NCBI GenBank assembly: GCA_964605945.1
Contig: CAZSEK010000001.1
Span: forward strand, 1 to 54,211
DNA length: 54,211 nucleotides
Direction of reading: 5' to 3'
Source: an uncultured Methanosarcinales archaeon
Lineage (GTDB): Archaea > Nanobdellota > Nanobdellia > Woesearchaeales > UBA9642
Position 1 is the first letter of the stretch; every line of letters begins with the position of its first letter. The position numbers and the translations under genes are program-made. The notes below the pieces were generated by a model. It made no database searches. It was not told the origin of the DNA and worked only from the letters and a program-made list of their open reading frames with translations. Below, one piece after another: positions 3,116 to 53,974 of this stretch.

Positions 3116-5758
3116 ATGAAAAAAATAATATTATTTGTTTTAATGTTTTTTGCACTCGCATGCATGGTTAGCGCAGCAACTGTAATTATACAGCCAGCTA
3201 ATCCTGTTGCAGGAGATCAATTAGATTGTACAGTTGTAGGAGGAACTTCATCATATTATTATTACTATTGGTTTAGAAATAATGTTTATCAAAGTTCATA
3301 CCAACAACACAACATACCTGCAGGAATAACTCTTGCAGGAGAAACATGGAGATGCGATGTCTACATTCCAGGAAATTATTATGTAGGACAAGCATATGCA
3401 TCAATTTCAGCAGCACCTTTAGCATTAAGCGCAACATGTAACGCAACACCTACAACAGGAGCAGCACCATTGAATGTTTTATTCAGTGCAACAGCATTAG
3501 GTGGTTCAGGAGTTTATACTTACGCATGGAATTTTGATGATGGAACAGCAGGAACAGGAGCAACTAACGCACACACATACACAGTGCCTGCAATATATAA
3601 TTCATTTTTAACAATTATGGATGGAACAGGCGCAAGCGTAGTAGCAAATTGCCCAGCAGTTACAGTCACAAGTGGAACACACACATTAACAGTAGCATTT
3701 TCATACACACCATTAGCACCAGCTGTAAATGAAGTTATAACATTTGACGGATCAGCAAGTGTTGATTCATTAGGACATCCATTGACATATTCATGGAACT
3801 TCGGAGACGGAATAACACAGTCTTCAGGCAATAGTCCAATCATAACACATTCATATATTGCACCAGGAACATATCCTGTAACATTGACTGTTTCAGACGG
3901 ACCTTATGGATTAACAGCATATATAACACACAATGTTGTTGTGACAGGAATTTTGAATATCACAAACATAAATTGTTTTAGAACAGTCATCGAAGGACAG
4001 AATCAGTCATGTCAGATAACAGTAACTACAAACAACTTGCCAGCACAGAATGTAGATGTTGATGTATATTTCCTTGACGGAACACCATTTGCAAGCTGTA
4101 CAACAACACTTGCAGGAGCATGCACTGTTTATAGAACAATGCCGGTTGGTTCAGCAGGAACTTACACTGTTTATGCAACAGCAGTTGCACCAGGATACAT
4201 CAATGATACAGATACATATCCAAGATATACATTTGATGTTTGGGCAAGACAATATGATATAATCAATTTAGCAACATATAATGATTCAGCATTTCATAAT
4301 TTAGATGGAGTATTTTACAGAGGAGAAGCTCTTTACGTAAAATTCCAGGTCTATGATGTTACAAATCATGTTTTTGTGACAGAAGACATTGTTACAGCGG
4401 CATCACTTGTAAGTTTGCCTGGCGGAAGAGCAGATCTTACAGAAATGACATTCAATGACAACTGGTATTATTATAGATTAGACATGATACCATTGACACA
4501 TGCATTCTTGGGAGACAGCAATGTATTTGCATTCGCTTTCAACTTTACAGGACAGACAGGAGGACAAGCACAAGTTAATTTGACAATATTAAATAATGTG
4601 CCAACAATAAGTCCTATTGCAGACATTAATATTAATGTCGGACAAATATATAATTTAGATTTAACACCTTACGGATATGATCTGGAAGACCAGAGAAATC
4701 TTGTATGGACAGTAACAGAAAATTCAGCTTATTTTGATGCACAGATAACAAATTTAGGATATTCAAATCTTGAAGTAACTGGAATTGCAGTTGGCTCAGG
4801 AACATTGACTTTGAGAGCATATGATTTGGATAATGATTATGATGAAATAATTGTTATTGTTAATGTAGGAACATCTGGAAACGGAACATATTATGTATGT
4901 TCAGCAGTTCCAACATCAGGAAATATTCCTTTGGATGTTACATTTACAATAACTCAACTTGGATCAACAAATACTGCATTCACAGTTGGATGGGATTTTG
5001 GAGACGGAACAACAGGAGCAGGAATACAGACAAGACACAGATATACAACAGCAGGAACATATATACCTGCTGCAATAATAACTGATGTAAATAGTGTTCA
5101 AACAATTCTTTGCCCTGCAATAAGAGCATTTTCAGGAAACACAACATTAAATGCAGATGCAGGCGGACCATACAATGGATACATGAATGAGCCTTTAACA
5201 TTTGATGCATCTGGTTCAACAGGAGCAATAATCGCTTATGAATGGAATTTTGGAGACGGTTCTGTTATAAGAACAACAACACCAACATTCGATTATACTT
5301 ATTTCAACAAAATAGGAAGATATACAATAACATTAACTGTTTTTGATGCAAACGGAAACACAGCAACAGACACAACAACAGCACTAATTATAGAAAGAGT
5401 TTATCAAAAACCAGCAGACATAGAAAAAGACACAGAAGGATTGTATATTGGAAGAATTTTGCTTGATGGAATAGATAGAAAAGGAGAAATATTAAGAAGC
5501 GATGACGAATTAACTATTGAAGTAAATATGGAAAATTTTTACAGCTATAAATTAGAAGATGTAAAAATGACTGCAGAAATTTTCGAATTAGGAATCAAGC
5601 AAAAAACATCTGCATTTGATCTAAGAAAAGGACAGGAAGCAACAAAAACATTAACTTTGCCTATCTATGACGCACCAGCAGGAACTTATTATTTGAAAAT
5701 AACAGTAGGCAATGAAGACGTCAAAAGAATCAAATACAGAGAGATCATTGTAAGATAA
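3116..5758 (+). CDS. Large secreted PKD-repeat surface protein
   Basis: Signal peptide MKKIILFVLMFFALACMVSA. Four PKD-domain signatures (WNFDDGT, WNFGDGI, WDFGDGT, WNFGDGS), each followed by H.Y...G.Y. T/G/A/Y-rich and visibly Lys/Glu-poor compared with neighbouring proteins. Confidence 0.85.
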   Translation: MKKIILFVLMFFALACMVSAATVIIQPANPVAGDQLDCTVVGGTSSYYYYYWFRNNVYQSSYQQHNIPAGITLAGETWRCDVYIPGNYYVGQAYASISAAPLALSATCNATPTTGAAPLNVLFSATALGGSGVYTYAWNFDDGTAGTGATNAHTYTVPAIYNSFLTIMDGTGASVVANCPAVTVTSGTHTLTVAFSYTPLAPAVNEVITFDGSASVDSLGHPLTYSWNFGDGITQSSGNSPIITHSYIAPGTYPVTLTVSDGPYGLTAYITHNVVVTGILNITNINCFRTVIEGQNQSCQITVTTNNLPAQNVDVDVYFLDGTPFASCTTTLAGACTVYRTMPVGSAGTYTVYATAVAPGYINDTDTYPRYTFDVWARQYDIINLATYNDSAFHNLDGVFYRGEALYVKFQVYDVTNHVFVTEDIVTAASLVSLPGGRADLTEMTFNDNWYYYRLDMIPLTHAFLGDSNVFAFAFNFTGQTGGQAQVNLTILNNVPTISPIADININVGQIYNLDLTPYGYDLEDQRNLVWTVTENSAYFDAQITNLGYSNLEVTGIAVGSGTLTLRAYDLDNDYDEIIVIVNVGTSGNGTYYVCSAVPTSGNIPLDVTFTITQLGSTNTAFTVGWDFGDGTTGAGIQTRHRYTTAGTYIPAAIITDVNSVQTILCPAIRAFSGNTTLNADAGGPYNGYMNEPLTFDASGSTGAIIAYEWNFGDGSVIRTTTPTFDYTYFNKIGRYTITLTVFDANGNTATDTTTALIIERVYQKPADIEKDTEGLYIGRILLDGIDRKGEILRSDDELTIEVNMENFYSYKLEDVKMTAEIFELGIKQKTSAFDLRKGQEATKTLTLPIYDAPAGTYYLKITVGNEDVKRIKYREIIVR

Positions 5759-5923: not shown

Positions 5924-7186
5924 ATGAAAAATACAATAAAAGCATTTGTATTAGTATTAGTAGCAATGATTGCTATAACTGCATACGCAGCAGCAGTCAA
6001 CTTGAACGTCGAGTATGTTAAAATAAACGGCGAAGAAGTAAGTATAGCAGACGGACATGCAAGAAACTTGCAGGTTGAAAGAGGCGAAGACCTTGACGTC
6101 AAAGTTTGTGTACAAGCATTAGCAGATGTAAAAGATGTACAAATAGAAGCAGATATCTATGGTTATAGATATTCATCCTATGAGTCAACAAAAATTTCTG
6201 ACGAAACATCAACATTCGATCTTGCAGGAAACGACACAACATGTAAAACATTAAAATTAGAAGTTCCTGAAAAAATGGACAAAGATTACTACAAATTAAG
6301 AATCTTAGTTGGAGACAGAGACAGCACAGCATTTTCACAAGATTATGAATTGCATGTAACAGGAATCGCAAGAGATTCAGCAGTTATTATAAAAGATTAT
6401 TCATTCAATCCAGAAGAAGTTATCGCAGGAAGAGCATTCACAGCAATTGTTAAAGTAAAGAATATGGGAAGCGATGATTTAGAAGATTTGAAAATAACAT
6501 TATCAATTCCAGAATTAGGAATAAAAACATCCGAATTCATGACTGAATTAGATGCAGACGAGTCAAAAACATTCGAAGAATTGTTATTAAGAGTTCCAGA
6601 ATGCGCAAAAGCAGGAACATATGATGTAACAATCAAAGTCGAATTTGACGAGTATGAGACAACAGTCACAGAAGGAACAATTGATGTAGTTTCAAGCAAT
6701 ACATGCGGATCAACTTTACCAGCAGGCTCAGACAAAACTGTTATAACAGTTCCTAGCTCACAGGAAGTTGCACAAGGAACAGGTGTTGTTTACCCTATCA
6801 TGATTGGCAACTCAGCAAATGTTGCAAAAACATATACAATAAGTGTTTCAGGTGCATCAGCATGGGCAACTACAAGAATCGACCCATCAGCAGTCATCGT
6901 AGTTCCAGCAGGACAAGCAAAAACAGTTTATTTGTATGTTAGCGCAAATAGTGACGCAGAACTTGGAGACAAAGCATTCACAATAAATGTTGAAACAGGT
7001 TCAGAAGCAAAACAAATTCCAGTTACAGCAAAAATAACAAAAGCAGCAGGAGCAAATTGGGACAATGTTAAAAATGGATTGCAGATTGGTTTGGTTGTTT
7101 TAGTAATCATATTGTTAGTTATCGGATTAATAATCGGATACAACAAAATGAAAGAAAACAAAAACGAACCAGAAACATACTATTAA
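5924..7186 (+). CDS. S-layer-like / CARDB-domain surface protein with a C-terminal membrane anchor
   Basis: Signal peptide (...AITAYAAAV). CARDB-like motif VKVKNMGSDDLEDLKITLS. C-terminal TM helix GLQIGLVVLVIILLVIGLIIGY plus a short tail. Strong promoter and SD. Confidence 0.7.
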   Translation: MKNTIKAFVLVLVAMIAITAYAAAVNLNVEYVKINGEEVSIADGHARNLQVERGEDLDVKVCVQALADVKDVQIEADIYGYRYSSYESTKISDETSTFDLAGNDTTCKTLKLEVPEKMDKDYYKLRILVGDRDSTAFSQDYELHVTGIARDSAVIIKDYSFNPEEVIAGRAFTAIVKVKNMGSDDLEDLKITLSIPELGIKTSEFMTELDADESKTFEELLLRVPECAKAGTYDVTIKVEFDEYETTVTEGTIDVVSSNTCGSTLPAGSDKTVITVPSSQEVAQGTGVVYPIMIGNSANVAKTYTISVSGASAWATTRIDPSAVIVVPAGQAKTVYLYVSANSDAELGDKAFTINVETGSEAKQIPVTAKITKAAGANWDNVKNGLQIGLVVLVIILLVIGLIIGYNKMKENKNEPETYY

Positions 7187-11661: not shown

Positions 11662-11680
11662 TAATTCTTATTCTATGTGT

Positions 11681-11796
11681 GGGGACGTAGTATAACCTGG
11701 CTAGAATAGACGGCTCCAACTTGGAGCGCTGAGGCGAAAGCCAATGACACTTCTAGCAGTCACCGTCGGATCCGAGTTCAAATCTCGGCGTCCCCA
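11681..11796 (+). tRNA. tRNA-Trp(CCA) with a ~42-nt intron at the canonical 37/38 position
   Basis: Acceptor GGGGACG/CGTCCCC plus A73. Anticodon stem GACGG/CCGTC with loop CU-CCA-A. T arm CCGAG-TTCAAAT-CTCGG. The intron start TTGGAG pairs with CTCCAA of the anticodon loop (BHB-like). The D stem is weak (GU pairs and a mismatch). Confidence 0.75.
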
Positions 11797-11803
11797 TTTA
11801 ATC

Positions 11804-25025: not shown

Positions 25026-26828
25026 ATGGAGCGAATATTGATTATTGATTTTGGGGGGCAATATGCACATCTTATTGCAAACAGACTTAGAAGATTGAAT
25101 GTTCTGGCAGACATAATTTACAATGAAGATTTAATTAAAGAAATAAAATCATCAAATAATATCAAAGGAATAATATTTTCAGGAGGCCCGTCAAGTGTTT
25201 ATGAAAAAGACTCTCCTAATATTTCTAGAAAAGTTTTTGATTTGAACATACCTATATTAGGAATATGTTATGGTCATCAATTAATAACTCATAAATTAAA
25301 AGGCACTGTAAAAAAAAGCAAAGTTAAGGAATATGGAGTAACAACAATTGATATAGAAAATAAAAAGAGCAAGTTGTTTAAAGGATTAAACAAGAAAGAA
25401 ACAGTTTGGATGAGCCATGGAGATTCTACCAATACTCTGCCTGAAGGTTTCAACATCATTGCAAAATCAAAAGACTGCCCAATAGCAGCGATGGAAAACA
25501 AGGAAAAACAAATCTATGGAATACAATTCCACCCCGAAGTAACCCACACAATTCATGGAATGAAAATTCTTGAAAATTTTGCAATCAATATATGTAAATG
25601 TAAAAAAGAATGGAATCCTAATAATTATTTTAATGAAATATCGAAAAAAATATCAAAACAAACAAAAAATAAGAAAGTCTTCCTTCTTGTAAGTGGAGGA
25701 GTTGATTCTATTGTTTTATTCACTTTATTAAATAAGATTTTAGGGAAAAAAAGAGTTTTTGGATTACATATTGATACAGGGTTTATGAGAAAAAACGAAA
25801 GTGCAGATATAATAAAAACTCTTTGCGACTTAAAATTAGACAACCTAAGTATTGTTGATGCATCAAAAGAATTTTTTAAGGCATTGGAAGGTGTTGTTGA
25901 ACCTGAAGAAAAAAGAAAAATCATAGGAAACCTCTTTCTGAATGTTGTGGATAACTATTCAAAGAAATTATTGTCGTCTAAAGAGTGGTTAGTTGCTCAA
26001 GGAACAATCTATCCTGACACTATAGAAAGTAAAGGAACAAAAAATGCAGATTTGATAAAAACACACCATAATAGAGTCCCTATAATGCAAGAATTAATAA
26101 AAAAAGGAAAAGTAATAGAGCCTTTGGCACATCTCTACAAAGACGAAGTTAGGGTGTTGGGTAAAAATTTAGGTTTACCTAACTCAATAATTCAAAGACA
26201 TCCTTTTCCAGGTCCAGGACTTGCAGTCAGAATTTTATGCAACGATAAAAAAACAGATGATGTTTCTAAATTGAATAAAAAAATAAAATTGTTTTTAAAA
26301 AACAAAAAATCAGGGGATATTTTTGCTCTTCCTATAAAAAGTGTCGGTGTCCAAGGAGACAGCAGAACATACAAACATCCCGCTGTCGTTGTTGAATGGT
26401 CTGATTGGGATGCACTTGAAAACCTATCAACAAAATTAACAAATACAATTCCAGAAATAAACAGAGTTTTGCTTTTGATAAAAAGAAAAGGCAAGGAAGA
26501 ACCTATTTTATTGAAAAAAACATTGACAAAAGAACGAGTAGAAATATTAAAAGATGCTGATTTTAAAGTGAATGAAATTATGAAACAAACAAACGTGTAT
26601 GATGAAGTCTGGCAAATGCCTATTGTCCTTATCCCAATATCATTTACAGGTGGGGAAAGTATTATTTTAAGGCCTGTTAACAGCCAAGAAGCAATGACTG
26701 CAAATTTCAGCAGACTTCCGAAACAAATAATAATAAAAGTAACCGATAAACTTTTGAAATCAAAAAACATAGATTCTGTTTTTTATGATATCACAAATAA
26801 ACCTCCTGCAACAATAGAGTGGGAGTAA
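25026..26828 (+). CDS. guaA: GMP synthase (glutamine-hydrolysing), fused GATase + ATP-PPase, long form
   Basis: GATase triad region GICYGHQL...QFHPEV. PP-loop LVSGGVDS. GVQGDSRTY. C-terminal KPPATIEWE. Confidence 0.9.
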   Translation: MERILIIDFGGQYAHLIANRLRRLNVLADIIYNEDLIKEIKSSNNIKGIIFSGGPSSVYEKDSPNISRKVFDLNIPILGICYGHQLITHKLKGTVKKSKVKEYGVTTIDIENKKSKLFKGLNKKETVWMSHGDSTNTLPEGFNIIAKSKDCPIAAMENKEKQIYGIQFHPEVTHTIHGMKILENFAINICKCKKEWNPNNYFNEISKKISKQTKNKKVFLLVSGGVDSIVLFTLLNKILGKKRVFGLHIDTGFMRKNESADIIKTLCDLKLDNLSIVDASKEFFKALEGVVEPEEKRKIIGNLFLNVVDNYSKKLLSSKEWLVAQGTIYPDTIESKGTKNADLIKTHHNRVPIMQELIKKGKVIEPLAHLYKDEVRVLGKNLGLPNSIIQRHPFPGPGLAVRILCNDKKTDDVSKLNKKIKLFLKNKKSGDIFALPIKSVGVQGDSRTYKHPAVVVEWSDWDALENLSTKLTNTIPEINRVLLLIKRKGKEEPILLKKTLTKERVEILKDADFKVNEIMKQTNVYDEVWQMPIVLIPISFTGGESIILRPVNSQEAMTANFSRLPKQIIIKVTDKLLKSKNIDSVFYDITNKPPATIEWE

Positions 26829-26989
26829 TTAAAATAAATTCTTTAAGAATTTTACAACATACGAATCTATTTTTAACTCTGCAGCCATAAATTGAATTAT
26901 CTAAGAAACGCAGATTATAAATTTTTTGGAATATCTACAAAAGACAAAACATTTTTAAATAGTTGATTAATTCAAATCATTGTATTAAT

Positions 26990-27174
26990 GGGTCGGTAGC
27001 TCAGCCTGGAAGGGAAATTCAACCTATGGATGAAAGTCCTTGGGTAAGAGAGCGCTACGCTGAAGTGTTTGTGAAGCAAACGTCAAGTAAGCTTCGCTTA
27101 CTGCGAACCGTAGATGTCATGGATTCAAAAGAGATTTTGAAATTTCAAATCTCCTGAAAGTTCCATCCGACCCA
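26990..27174 (+). tRNA. tRNA-Phe(GAA) apparently interrupted by three introns (D loop, anticodon loop, T loop)
   Basis: Acceptor GGGTCGG/CCGACCC plus A73. D stem GCTC(26999-27002)/GAGC(27050-27053). Anticodon stem CTACG/CGTAG with CU-GAA-G. T stem ATGGA/TCCAT. The three loops hold ~47, ~49 and 38 nt instead of 8-11, 7 and 7. TATA ~30 nt upstream, oligo-T downstream. Confidence 0.7.
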
Positions 27175-27236
27175 TTTTTATTTTTTCTAATGAAATTGTT
27201 ATTTTTTTAAATAATTTAGAAGTTTATTCTTATTTA

Positions 27237-29513
27237 TTATGCCGCAACACCTAATGTTCCCCCGCCTAAAATTACTCCTGCAATCATATTAAAGACAAGA
27301 GTTACAATCAATGCTATAATCACATAAAGAACAGTGCTTGCAATCAAATTATTTCCAAGCATATATCTTTCATTCATCGGATCTGAGCCATTCTGTATTC
27401 CGTTGACTAATATTGTAAGAATGAAAACAATTTGGACAACATATATTCCTACAATCAATTGAAAATAGAAACTCGGGATTCCTACTCCGAAAAAATCCGC
27501 TCCGAATCCTCCCATGCCTGATGCTCCTCCCAAGCTTCCCCCGCCTGCTGTTGCAGCATCCATATTTTTCATCTGGTCAGAAAGATTGCCCAATATTGTT
27601 GTAATCATAGATGTAATGCCCATGACAATTCCTGCAATTGCTGGTGTCAAGAAACTTATCTGGGATTTCATACTGCTTATTGTATCTGCCATAAGATCTT
27701 TCAATCTTTCGTCCACTCTATGAATTTGCTTGATGTATTCTGAAACATTAATTAATGCCTGTGATGCAACCAAAGGTCCTTTTTTACTTGACTCAATAAG
27801 AACTTTCATCGAACTTTCTATAAGGTTGCTTGGATAATATATTATTGCCCCCTGTTTTGAATCAAATATTGCCTCTTCGACATTCATACCTAATTTAGTT
27901 ATATTAATGCTGACTAATTCAAAAAATTTCCCTGATGTTGTTCCTTCCATTATCCCAGAAACTTTTGAAAATGCAATTTCTGCGGGAAGCCCGTCTCCTA
28001 ATCTATTTCCTAGCTGAAATAATGCAGATGCAAATTCCTGCTCTAATTTTTTTGACTGCGTCCTTATTTTCATGACATTTTTTGAACGTAATTTATAATA
28101 ACTTCCTATGCCAAGCCCAAAACTTAAAGGAATAAAAAGACTTAATATTGCCGCACCTAAACCAAACGGCCCCAGCGTATCACCTGTTTGGTCATTAACA
28201 TATCTGTATCCGATAAGGTAAAATTTTGCATCTTTGTCAATCATTGTATTAATTGCTTTTATCTCTCCCTGATTTGTAATAATAACATCGAATTTAGGTG
28301 CAACCATATGAAACAACAAAGGACTTATACCTATCATAAAAAGAATTATGAAAATAAAAAACGCAATTATTACGGGAGGAAATTTCAGTTCAAACTCACC
28401 TATTTTCAAAATAGTATTTTTGTGTTTTTTCATCTCAGGATTATTTTCAGATATGTCTGACTCTCCATATCCTGTCGGACGGCTGCTAAGTATTACTTTC
28501 CCAAGATAATATACACCTATAGGAAGGGCAACATTATATAATGAAAAAATGTGATACCATTTTACTTCACTCATAAAACTTACTACGAGAGGAAGGATTA
28601 CAAGACCCAATATAGGCAGAACAATACCAAGCATATTCAGCATAGTAAGCGGACTTTGCAGGTCATGCGCATAATGAAGCATTTTTTCATAAGTTTCATC
28701 AAGTATAACTTTCAATGATTTTTCAAGACTATCAAGTCTTCTTGATTCTGATCCTTCATATAATGATGATTCAATAAGATGAACACTCTCAATAAATTCC
28801 ATATTGTATTTTTTCCATCCTTCCAGATATGCATCTAATGATTCTTTCACAGAAGAATATTTTTCTGTCTCTACATTCCACATTATTTTCTTTAAATCCA
28901 ATGATAATGGTGGAGGAAGATGTTCTGCAGCAAAATCTATTGCATTTTCAAGGTTGCTTGTATGTCTCATATAGGTGACCATATAAAAAACACAAAGAAC
29001 CATCTGATTGCTTGCTTTCATACGCCAGTTATTTGCTATAAATTCTGGCAGTTTGCCTAAAGGAATAATAATTATTCCTCCCATCACTAAAGAAAATAAT
29101 ATAAAAAACATTTCTGCTCCTGTTTCTCCGTTTGGATCAAAAATAACAGGCAGGACAAAACTTAAGAAAGCAACAACTACAACTAATGTTAAAGGTGCAA
29201 GGAAAGAAAAGCTTTTAACTCCTGTCGGTGTTACATTTATGTGGCATGTCTCTATTGCTTCCTGTATTTTTTCTGCTTCTTTCTTGTCAGGAGCTATCTT
29301 AAATATTTTTTCAGAAAAATTGCACGCTTTTTCGTAGAAATTCAGCTGTTTGGGAATCCATTGCTTTCTGAATTCCTGATACTGCCTTGAATGTGTCTTA
29401 TCTGCATCTGTATTAGAATTCTTATAATTCTCGAATTCGGATTTTATCTTATCCTTGTATTTCTTCTCAAATTCTTCCAATTCCTTATTAGTTACTCCTT
29501 TTAACAATCTCAA
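27237..29513 (-). CDS. Polytopic membrane platform protein of a type IV pilus/archaellum-like system (FlaJ/TadC/PilC-like)
   Basis: 758 aa with many TM helices. Sits directly downstream of the FlaI-like ATPase. Has T2SSF-like soluble segments and a Gly-rich stretch AATAGGGSLGGASGMGGFGADFFG. Confidence 0.5.
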   Translation of the reverse strand: MRLLKGVTNKELEEFEKKYKDKIKSEFENYKNSNTDADKTHSRQYQEFRKQWIPKQLNFYEKACNFSEKIFKIAPDKKEAEKIQEAIETCHINVTPTGVKSFSFLAPLTLVVVVAFLSFVLPVIFDPNGETGAEMFFILFSLVMGGIIIIPLGKLPEFIANNWRMKASNQMVLCVFYMVTYMRHTSNLENAIDFAAEHLPPPLSLDLKKIMWNVETEKYSSVKESLDAYLEGWKKYNMEFIESVHLIESSLYEGSESRRLDSLEKSLKVILDETYEKMLHYAHDLQSPLTMLNMLGIVLPILGLVILPLVVSFMSEVKWYHIFSLYNVALPIGVYYLGKVILSSRPTGYGESDISENNPEMKKHKNTILKIGEFELKFPPVIIAFFIFIILFMIGISPLLFHMVAPKFDVIITNQGEIKAINTMIDKDAKFYLIGYRYVNDQTGDTLGPFGLGAAILSLFIPLSFGLGIGSYYKLRSKNVMKIRTQSKKLEQEFASALFQLGNRLGDGLPAEIAFSKVSGIMEGTTSGKFFELVSINITKLGMNVEEAIFDSKQGAIIYYPSNLIESSMKVLIESSKKGPLVASQALINVSEYIKQIHRVDERLKDLMADTISSMKSQISFLTPAIAGIVMGITSMITTILGNLSDQMKNMDAATAGGGSLGGASGMGGFGADFFGVGIPSFYFQLIVGIYVVQIVFILTILVNGIQNGSDPMNERYMLGNNLIASTVLYVIIALIVTLVFNMIAGVILGGGTLGVAA

Positions 29514-53843: not shown

Positions 53844-53974
53844 GGCGGCCGTGATGTAGCCAGGTAGCATAGAGGACTGTGGCTTTTTAAGCAGACATCC
53901 TTTAGGGTGAGTTCAAATATCCCAGAGGGATACAACAAATTCCTCAGGATTTGAAAGTCTCACCGGCCGCTCCA
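53844..53974 (+). tRNA. tRNA-His(GUG) with two introns (anticodon loop ~14 nt, T loop ~40 nt), encoded G-1 and CCA
   Basis: G-1 (53844). Acceptor GCGGCCG/CGGCCGC, then U73 and CCA. D arm ATGT-AGCCAGGTA-GCAT. Anticodon stem GAGGA/TCCTT with CU-GUG-G. T stem GTGAG/CTCAC encloses 47 nt (TTCAAA ... T). TATA (TTTTTAAAT) ~30 nt upstream. Confidence 0.65.

Follow-up and report, generated by a model that had tools for sequence, protein, structure and literature searches.

Described interrupted tRNA genes and the window gene

In the Thermoproteales, tRNA genes carry up to three bulge-helix-bulge (BHB) introns each and introns transpose between genes, as reviewed in PMC4033280 (Sugahara 2008 and Fujishima 2010 as cited there). 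In ARMAN-2 (Ca. Micrarchaeum), tRNA introns between positions 59 and 60 are cut by a three-unit epsilon2 splicing endonuclease, EndA (PMC3239211, PMC3488258), while DPANN EndAs of the homotetramer type were associated by Kaneta et al. 2018 (PMC5829648) with more tRNA disruption, tied to the 'L3' loop, that is, the N. equitans/ARMAN-2-type loop around the catalytic His. The latter study reported incomplete predicted tRNA sets in DPANN, including a Woesearchaeota genome, and expected hidden disrupted tRNA genes. Here we describe a tRNA-Phe(GAA) gene with inserts in three loops at positions 26990-27174 of a 54,211-nt stretch of DNA (the window), which is contig C1 of a metagenome-assembled genome (G000) of Woesearchaeales, DPANN.

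We read 26990-27174 as a functional single-copy tRNA-Phe(GAA) gene whose precursor of at least 185 nt would hold three introns and be processed by EndA and RtcB, with a probability of about 0.9. The exon/intron boundaries, the splice motifs and the presence of the enzyme genes are established, and a further gene for tRNA-Phe was not found. We infer, as follows, that the locus is transcribed and its transcript cut and ligated, and in what oligomeric state EndA acts. The precursor would be transcribed with interruptions at 19/20 in the D-loop, 37/38 in the anticodon loop and 59/60 in the T-loop, all four cloverleaf stems still being able to form. A single EndA, acting as a homotetramer, would cut it at six sites (between 27009 and 27010, 27047 and 27048, 27065 and 27066, 27107 and 27108, 27129 and 27130, and 27160 and 27161), the four exons would be joined by RtcB into a 74-nt tRNA, and CCA, which is not encoded in the gene, would be added after ligation.

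The window gene resembles those of the Thermoproteales in having up to three introns per gene, some at non-canonical positions, with BHB motifs at the junctions, in being missed by gene finders, and in that similar introns occur in different tRNA species of one genome, here as the 'CCCAGAGGG' family. It differs in belonging to DPANN/Woesearchaeales from a mesophilic groundwater habitat, in that a single EndA of about 200 aa was found here and no beta subunit or Crenarchaea-specific loop, and in that its two non-canonical introns are strict, not relaxed. With ARMAN-2 it shares the DPANN affiliation, T-loop 59/60 introns, including those of the strict hBHBh' form, and a large fraction of disrupted tRNA genes, whereas the ARMAN-2 EndA is a 395-aa three-unit protomer with an ASL loop (K161) and the present one has 207 aa, one unit and no such insert; D-loop, anticodon and T-loop introns in one gene are not among the ARMAN-2 examples consulted in PMC3239211. 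Relative to the DPANN genomes of PMC5829648, the window gene is a concrete case of the expected 'unidentified disrupted tRNA genes', whereas the present EndA has a 6-residue gap at 'L3' with respect to NEQ205 and the length of the M. jannaschii EndA in pairwise alignments. A study of hidden D-arm introns (bioRxiv 10.64898/2026.10.13.758758) likewise documented introns that annotators miss, repeated gains, canonical BHB motifs and detection through compact relatives; it concerns another superphylum and found no general copying between tRNA genes, whereas 59/60 families are shared between genes here. A eukaryotic tRNA gene with introns in three arms shows the same three-arm distribution but depends on a heterotetrameric Sen complex and has no evolutionary link to the present case.

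Multi-intron archaeal tRNA genes (with a maximum of three), DPANN 59/60 introns and hidden D-arm introns are documented (PMC4033280, PMC3239211, bioRxiv 10.64898/2026.10.13.758758), and the window gene is therefore a well-supported further example and no new mechanism. Its added value is modest and lies in a heavy intron load beside a plain single-subunit EndA and in a clean presence/absence series in sister species.

Exon boundaries and splice motifs

All coordinates are in window numbering unless a contig is named, and G002-G012 designate other genomes. Orthologous tRNA-Phe genes were collected by BLAST of 40 related genomes followed by alignment, and 11 orthologs of the same genus were examined. 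In G003, G005, G007 and G009 the gene has 74 nt and no intron (GGGACGATAGCTCAGCCTGGGAGAGCGCTACGCTGAAGCCGTAGATGTCCTGAGTTCAAATCTCAGTCGTCCCA, with slight variation among the four at acceptor positions), and those of G003 and G009 score 64.5-64.7 bits with RF00005. In G002, G010 and G008 it carries a 37/38 intron only, homologous to that of the window gene with 76-85% identity over the stretch from exon 2 to exon 3 including the intron, while G006, G011 and G012 carry other short introns at 37/38 only. The ortholog of G004 (L023) holds a 37/38 intron and a 40-nt insert after TTCAAA, at 59/60. Inserts in the D-loop, at 37/38 and in the T-loop occur together, within the same-genus set, in the window genome only: the D-loop intron is missing in all 11 orthologs, the 59/60 insert is found in G004 alone, and the 37/38 insert is missing in the four intron-less genes.

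The genes of G002 and G010 begin with a stretch identical to exon 1, and all exons of G002 are 100% identical to those of the window gene. The BLAST pieces of G002 abut exactly at 27009/27048 and 27129/27161, where 27010-27047 and 27130-27160 are lacking, and the three inserts are therefore 38, 42 and 31 nt long at the coordinates given in Table 1. By alignment, all six exon/intron boundaries are fixed by the orthologs, as a one-base shift would alter the mature sequence with respect to them. An earlier reading of this DNA, made from its letters only (the sequence-only reading), had described four cloverleaf stems, three expanded loops and three hairpins internal to the inserts, and all of these were recovered, the inserts now with exact lengths. 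Its identification of a tRNA-Phe gene with three introns, two of them non-canonical, agrees with the orthologs, with the BHB geometry and with the finding of no other tRNA-Phe gene.

BLAST matches in eight relatives that reach 12-15 nt into the D-loop intron were considered as candidate homologs of this intron and rejected; by alignment they belong to ordinary genes for tRNA-Lys(TTT), in which the resemblance of the D-loop/D-stem CCTGGTAGAGCAAT to CCTGGAAGGGAAAT is fortuitous.

Joined, the four exons form a 74-mer, for which the ARAGORN call is tRNA-Phe(gaa). Of its 74 bases, 64 agree with the intron-less ortholog, and those that differ lie in the acceptor and T stems, where pairing is kept. 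G20, G34-A35-A36 and A73, the classical PheRS identity elements, are present. A second tRNA-Phe gene, for which the sequence-only reading had advised a check, was found nowhere in the 98%-complete assembly by ARAGORN, RF00005 or BLAST of the mature sequence and the anticodon arm; matches to the mature sequence in the genome consist of the four exon pieces of the locus and the shared 5' 20-mer of tRNA-Lys(TTT) only. A gene on contig C78, called 'tRNA-Phe(aaa)' by ARAGORN after removal of its T-loop intron, shares its acceptor stem, D-arm and long variable arm with the tRNA-Ser genes and is a mis-called Ser isoacceptor, not a second tRNA-Phe.

The splice motifs were placed with a BHB geometry in which four exon nucleotides pair with intron nucleotides n-5 to n-2 and the two bulges consist of X-1, X, i1 and of i(n-1), i(n), Y; the register also follows from the anticodon-intron pair rule. 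In the 3-4-3 hBHBh' motif a central helix of 4 bp is combined with flanking helices and with two bulges of 3 nt in which the splice sites lie (PMC3239211). In the D-loop intron the central helix GCCT 27004-27007 / GGGT 27042-27045 forms 4/4 pairs, the bulges are GG-A and AA-G (the hyphen marking the splice site), the helix on the intron side has 5 bp (AGGGA 27011-27015 / TCCTT 27037-27041), and the outer helix is the D stem, reached after an A14/A21 mismatch. When the intron was shuffled, a 4-bp central helix with an intron helix of at least 5 bp arose at the observed junctions in 7.5e-5 of trials. In the T-loop intron the central helix TTCA 27124-27127 / TGAA 27155-27158 likewise forms 4/4 pairs, the bulges are AA-A and AG-T, the outer helix is the 5-bp T stem and the intron helix GAGATTT / AAATCTC has 7 bp. 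The sequence-only reading had proposed BHB pairing at the inserts in general and had named failure of the motif at the D-loop and T-loop junctions as a point to check. Strict 3-4-3 motifs form at both of these, and at the 37/38 junction only 2/4 central pairs do (C32-G27105 and A35-U27102). The relaxed motif is thus that of the intron at the canonical position and not that of the non-canonical introns.

The unconstrained minimum free energy (MFE) fold of the 185-mer has -61.9 kcal/mol (z = -3.8 against 200 shuffles) and keeps all four cloverleaf stems and the T-loop BHB; a structure with both the D-loop and the T-loop BHB lies only 0.1 kcal/mol above it.

Of the two hairpins of the 37/38 intron, GTTTG/CAAAC lies beside the 5' bulge and GTAAGC/GCTTAC beside the central helix, and the latter corresponds to GAATGC/GCATTC in G002, G010 and G008, with two compensatory double changes. 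The central helix in the same register has 3/4 pairs in G002, G010, G004, G008 and G006 and 4/4 in G012. Division of this insert into two introns by means of the TGAAG repeat (27061-27065, 27072-27076) was considered and rejected, since the motif needed fails to form and the repeat is missing in relatives. A consensus from RNAalifold for this intron pairs A36 and G37, is incompatible with cleavage after G37 and was not used.

Recurrence of the D-loop site was assessed with the pattern GCTCAGYYTGG-N(20-50)-GAGAGC-N6-CTGAAG, which matches 7/401 Woesearchaeales genomes (4/257 genera) and 34 metagenome contigs, roughly 25 of them clearly tRNA-Phe genes. The inserts matched have 21-45 nt and are mostly unrelated in sequence, and nearly all are built as a stem-loop, then GGGY, then AA directly before G20; 17/20 distinct D-loop introns have a 4/4 central helix and an intron helix of at least 3 bp, usually 5-10 bp. 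As aligned, the recurrence of GGGY+AA before G20 in unrelated introns is covariation-type support for the motif, and by the pattern matches the D-loop intron is recurrent in the tRNA-Phe of this lineage and no one-off. Two metagenome tRNA-Phe genes, L150 (Ga0099828_10000694) and L162 (Ga0209541_10001550), apparently have three inserts each, one in the D-loop, one at 37/38 and one in the T arm or the variable region. The D-loop junctions of these two genes differ in register from the Woesearchaeal ones.

As to the order of events, none of the 12 other genomes of the genus had a match at E<=1e-50 to the GMP synthase encoded next to the locus, and EndA identities of 72-85% are too flat to order the sister species. 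The polarity of intron gain versus loss is therefore a matter of parsimony only, by which the introns of the D-loop and T-loop seem to have been gained later in this lineage.

Table 1. Features of the tRNA-Phe locus and its surroundings in the window
Feature	Position	Strand	Basis
TATA-box-like A/T-rich element TTTTTAAATA, putative archaeal promoter	26942..26951	+	read from sequence; ~40 nt upstream of mature 5' end
Exon 1: acceptor 5' strand, U8-A9, D-stem 5' strand, D-loop AGCCTGG to G19	26990..27009	+	collinear with intron-less orthologs
Intron 1, 38 nt, D-loop, between G19 and G20, strict BHB	27010..27047	+	missing from orthologs; motif
Exon 2: G20-A21, D-stem 3' strand, G26, anticodon-stem 5' strand, C32 U33 GAA G37	27048..27065	+	matches orthologs
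Intron 2, 42 nt, canonical 37/38 position, two internal hairpins, weakened central BHB helix	27066..27107	+	ortholog comparison
Exon 3: C38, anticodon-stem 3' strand, variable loop ATGTC, T-stem ATGGA, T-loop TTCAAA to position 59	27108..27129	+	identical to G002
Intron 3, 31 nt, T-loop, between positions 59 and 60, strict BHB	27130..27160	+	missing from orthologs except G004; motif
Exon 4: U60, T-stem TCCAT, acceptor CCGACCC, discriminator A73	27161..27174	+	sequence, alignment
Acceptor stem GGGTCGG / CCGACCC, then A73 at 27174	26990-26996 / 27167-27173
D stem GCTC / GAGC	26999-27002 / 27050-27053
Anticodon stem CTACG / CGTAG	27055-27059 / 27109-27113
C-T-GAA-G of the anticodon loop	27060-27065
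T stem ATGGA / TCCAT	27119-27123 / 27162-27166
Oligo-T tract TTTTTATTTTTT, likely archaeal transcription termination signal	27175..27186	+	read from sequence
64-aa open reading frame (ORF), TTG start, overlapping the tRNA gene	26963-27157		ORF list
Left neighbour, fused GMP synthase, 600 aa (GATase + NAD_synthase-like + GMP_synt_C)	25026-26828	+	Pfam
Right neighbour	27237-29513	-	Pfam: no match

Splicing enzymes and alternative explanations

A six-frame search of the genome with PF01974 gave a single match at E<=1, a 207-aa EndA on contig C17:5264-5887(-) with one N-terminal (PF02778) and one catalytic (PF01974) domain. An unfiltered phmmer search (--max) over 3917 ORFs returned no paralog or beta subunit, and exactly one strong PF01974 match was present in each of 20 relatives checked, again an EndA of roughly 200 aa that resembles the M. 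jannaschii homotetramer type. Close relatives of the protein are all labelled Woesearchaeota, Nanoarchaeota or Nanoarchaeia metagenome-assembled genomes. Among PDB entries it matches best the N. equitans EndA catalytic subunit (3IEY_A, 8.8e-39), and since the N. equitans beta subunit also matches it at 7.7e-17, a similar beta subunit would have been seen. The alignment with M. jannaschii EndA (1A79, 4.5e-33) covers residues 38-207 with indels of 1-2 residues only and none in the catalytic domain, and the catalytic triad Tyr/His/Lys is conserved (FRVY, DH, STKK). The Lys-rich loop of N. equitans EndA comprises residues 90-98 (PMC3488258); in pairwise sequence alignment with 3IEY_A the present EndA has gaps of 2 and 4 residues at this loop of NEQ205, where its length equals that of 1A79. 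The 2-residue insert bearing K161 in ARMAN-2 is missing from its alignment. An N-terminal extension of about 35 aa, rich in Lys and Glu, is missing in the M. jannaschii enzyme and might, speculatively, give extra RNA contacts.

By domain content and alignment, EndA is of the single-subunit kind and not alpha2beta2 or epsilon2, and it presumably acts as a homotetramer of the M. jannaschii type. The sequence-only reading had taken the gene to imply a crenarchaeal alpha2beta2 or ARMAN-type epsilon2 endonuclease, which the finding of one 207-aa EndA, with no beta subunit or specificity loops detected, does not bear out. Archaeal EndA cleaves independently of position, and since both non-canonical introns form strict motifs, no special (broad-specificity) enzyme is required for them. 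EndAs of strict specificity recognise the BHB motif itself (PMC3239211).

A gene for the RtcB ligase (PF01139) lies on contig C28. In this gene (C28:3456-6203(-)) Pfam positions 1-50 and 48-426 are matched about 1.4 kb apart in one 975-aa frame, which implies that about 480 aa, perhaps an intein, are inserted.

Several points weigh against a functional gene processed in the way proposed. The T stem closes with A53-U61 where G53-C61 is near-universal, and the helix of the T-loop intron contains one extra C. The 37/38 intron has only half of the central pairs and two hairpins replacing one flanking helix, and thus departs from the strict motif that is reportedly needed by homotetramer-type enzymes (PMC3239211). 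The locus was met in DNA metagenomes only and in no RNA run, its transcription and splicing being presumed, and a second tRNA-Phe gene or a beta subunit may lie in the missing ~2% of the 105-contig assembly. As an observation on the T stem, A53-U61 is shared by the tRNA-Phe of G002, G010 and G004 as well as by that of a separate clade from metagenomes (T arm CGGGA-TTCAAAT-TCCCG).

The departure at 37/38 is also what would be expected if the introns were real and cut by a broad-specificity EndA, heteromeric or modified, with a second subunit or specificity element that has diverged too far to be recognised by sequence. The ~35-aa N-terminal extension would agree with such an enzyme, as would the link between intron-rich tRNA sets and broad enzymes and the greater disruption that accompanies DPANN homotetramer-type EndAs with extra loops (PMC5829648). 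We consider this unlikely, though worth keeping in view, given the single PF01974 match here and in each relative, the unfiltered search that returned no paralog even though the N. equitans beta subunit is similar enough to match EndA, and the lack of any insertion at the known specificity-loop positions. Rejection by standard tRNA finders, the degraded 37/38 motif and an assembly in 105 contigs would also fit a decaying pseudogene with three disabling insertions, the tRNA-Phe being provided by a copy outside the assembly or by a host, since DPANN archaea commonly depend on hosts. This we hold to be very improbable: no decay is seen in the exons, which match those of G002 at 100% identity; two of the inserts lie in BHB motifs that are precise and strict; the genome, 98% complete, yielded no second tRNA-Phe; at least 11 other tRNA genes with like inserts would all need to be pseudogenes; and in archaea no import of tRNA from a host is known.

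An assembly artefact or chimera, or a real gene in the 64-aa ORF, might be thought of because the source is a metagenome-assembled genome and the ORF appears in a mechanical ORF list. The DNA of the locus occurs in groundwater metagenomes, where 26850-27330 is matched with 0 differences by independently assembled Logan contigs from three runs of two studies; one of these contigs covers the whole tRNA-Phe gene. The locus is therefore no artefact of assembly. The ORF lacks any Pfam match and is not conserved, 38-111 nt of it being missing at orthologous loci, in agreement with its earlier description as spurious. The chance of an explanation of this kind is negligible. The functional three-intron gene, cut by a single-subunit EndA, is thus the reading we retain.

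Other interrupted tRNA genes and neighbouring features

The genome has 1.12 Mb in 105 contigs, 30% G+C and an estimated completeness of ~98%. ARAGORN found no tRNA anywhere in the window and still missed 26990-27174 with intron search on. Rfam/Infernal gave no match to the locus at the gathering threshold, nothing relevant at E<=10 in 26700-27500 and no match to it in a whole-genome RF00005 search; the prediction that automatic annotation would miss this gene was therefore correct. RF00005 detects the same-genus tRNA-Phe genes with 0 or 1 intron, not the two-intron gene of G004 or the three-intron window gene. No Rfam family, whether of a group I/II intron, a C/D-box guide RNA or a mobile element, reached its threshold, and no other copies of the introns of the window tRNA-Phe were found elsewhere in the genome.

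Only ~18-22 tRNAs are detectable in the genome with ARAGORN and RF00005. A scan for T stems enclosing TTCRAN, an insert and N, the 3' end of the insert pairing with TTCR, yielded 11 good 59/60 candidates in the genome, in which the insert ends in TGAA/CGAA plus 2 nt and pairs with the T-loop TTCR. Outside the window such introns lie on contigs C5, C10, C14, C18 (two genes), C37, C49 and C78. After excision of the inserts ARAGORN recovers tRNAs for His, Ser(TGA), Glu(CTC), Leu(TAA), Gly(TCC), Ser(GCT), Ser(GGA) and Ala(TGC) and another Ser-like gene. The detection of about 20 tRNAs in a 98%-complete genome is thus explained by 59/60 inserts that hide genes from the finders.

The tRNA-His(GTG) gene at 53844-53974 has a 40-nt 59/60 intron at 53918-53957 (TATCCCAGAGGGATAC...TTTGAAAG) and is found by ARAGORN only after its removal; the recovered call has 90 nt, which makes it probable that a short insert at 37/38 was left in place. 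The tRNA-Leu(TAA) gene (C10:23365-23556 (+)) has three BHB introns, at ~9/10, 37/38 and 59/60, and tRNA-Phe is therefore not the sole triple-intron gene of the genome. The D-loops of tRNA-Ala(TGC) on C49(-) near 6631 and tRNA-Arg(TCT) on C70(+) near 3701 are enlarged by 33 and 43 nt; they begin ATATCATGAAAG and ATACTTTGAAAG, respectively, and a clean 3-4-3 motif could be placed on neither.

Alignment of the introns with the BHB-constrained 3' ends excluded, and z computed against shuffles, revealed two families at 59/60. The 'CCCAGAGGG' mini-hairpin family (40-42 nt, z 5.6-10.7) comprises the introns of tRNA-His (53918-53957), Ser(GCT) on C18(-), Leu on C10(+) and the tRNA-Phe of G004, and the 'GAGATTTT...AAATCTC' family (z 3.8-5.5) those of the window tRNA-Phe, Leu(TAA) and Ser(GGA). 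The presence of the first family in different tRNAs suggests that introns were copied between tRNA genes. As the tRNA-Phe genes of the window and of G004 hold different families at 59/60, independent insertions are favoured, as in the Thermoproteales (PMC4033280).

The 3' ends of the introns complement the loops in which they lie, TGAA+AG matching the T-loop TTCA at 59/60 and GGGY+AA the D-loop RCCU at 19/20. We put forward tentatively, as a possibility we rate below even odds, that families of small mobile BHB introns may spread between tRNA genes in Woesearchaeales and target invariant loop sequences. If so, landing in a loop would by itself complete a strict motif that a plain homotetramer-type EndA can cut, and G002 and the window genome, with identical exons, would form a natural system for the study of archaeal tRNA intron gain. 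The differences among sister species and the shared intron families are in any event a usable data set on such gain.

For annotation, the genome seems to be without tRNA-Phe and about half of its tRNAs, whereas the genes are present but interrupted, so that conclusions on metabolism or dependency that start from the 'missing tRNAs' of DPANN genomes would be wrong. The current picture of enzyme-intron co-evolution pairs intron-rich, non-canonical tRNA sets with EndAs that are heterotetrameric, have three units or carry extra loops, whereas this genome has a plain single-subunit EndA beside many 59/60 introns and a D-loop intron, apparently because the introns keep the strict motif.

Among the neighbouring features, TTTTTAAATA may act as the promoter of the tRNA-Phe gene; in the alignment a similar element, TATTTAAAT, stands at a comparable distance upstream of the same-genus orthologs. 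The tract TTTTTATTTTTT is likely to serve as terminator. The fused GMP synthase to the left, in view of its lack of matches among the other genomes of the genus, may be split or far more divergent in relatives, or may have been acquired here. A tRNA-Trp(CCA) gene at 11680-11797 (+) is interrupted close to the anticodon by an intron of 42 nt; ARAGORN finds this gene in intron mode only, and RF00005 gives it 40.9 bits.

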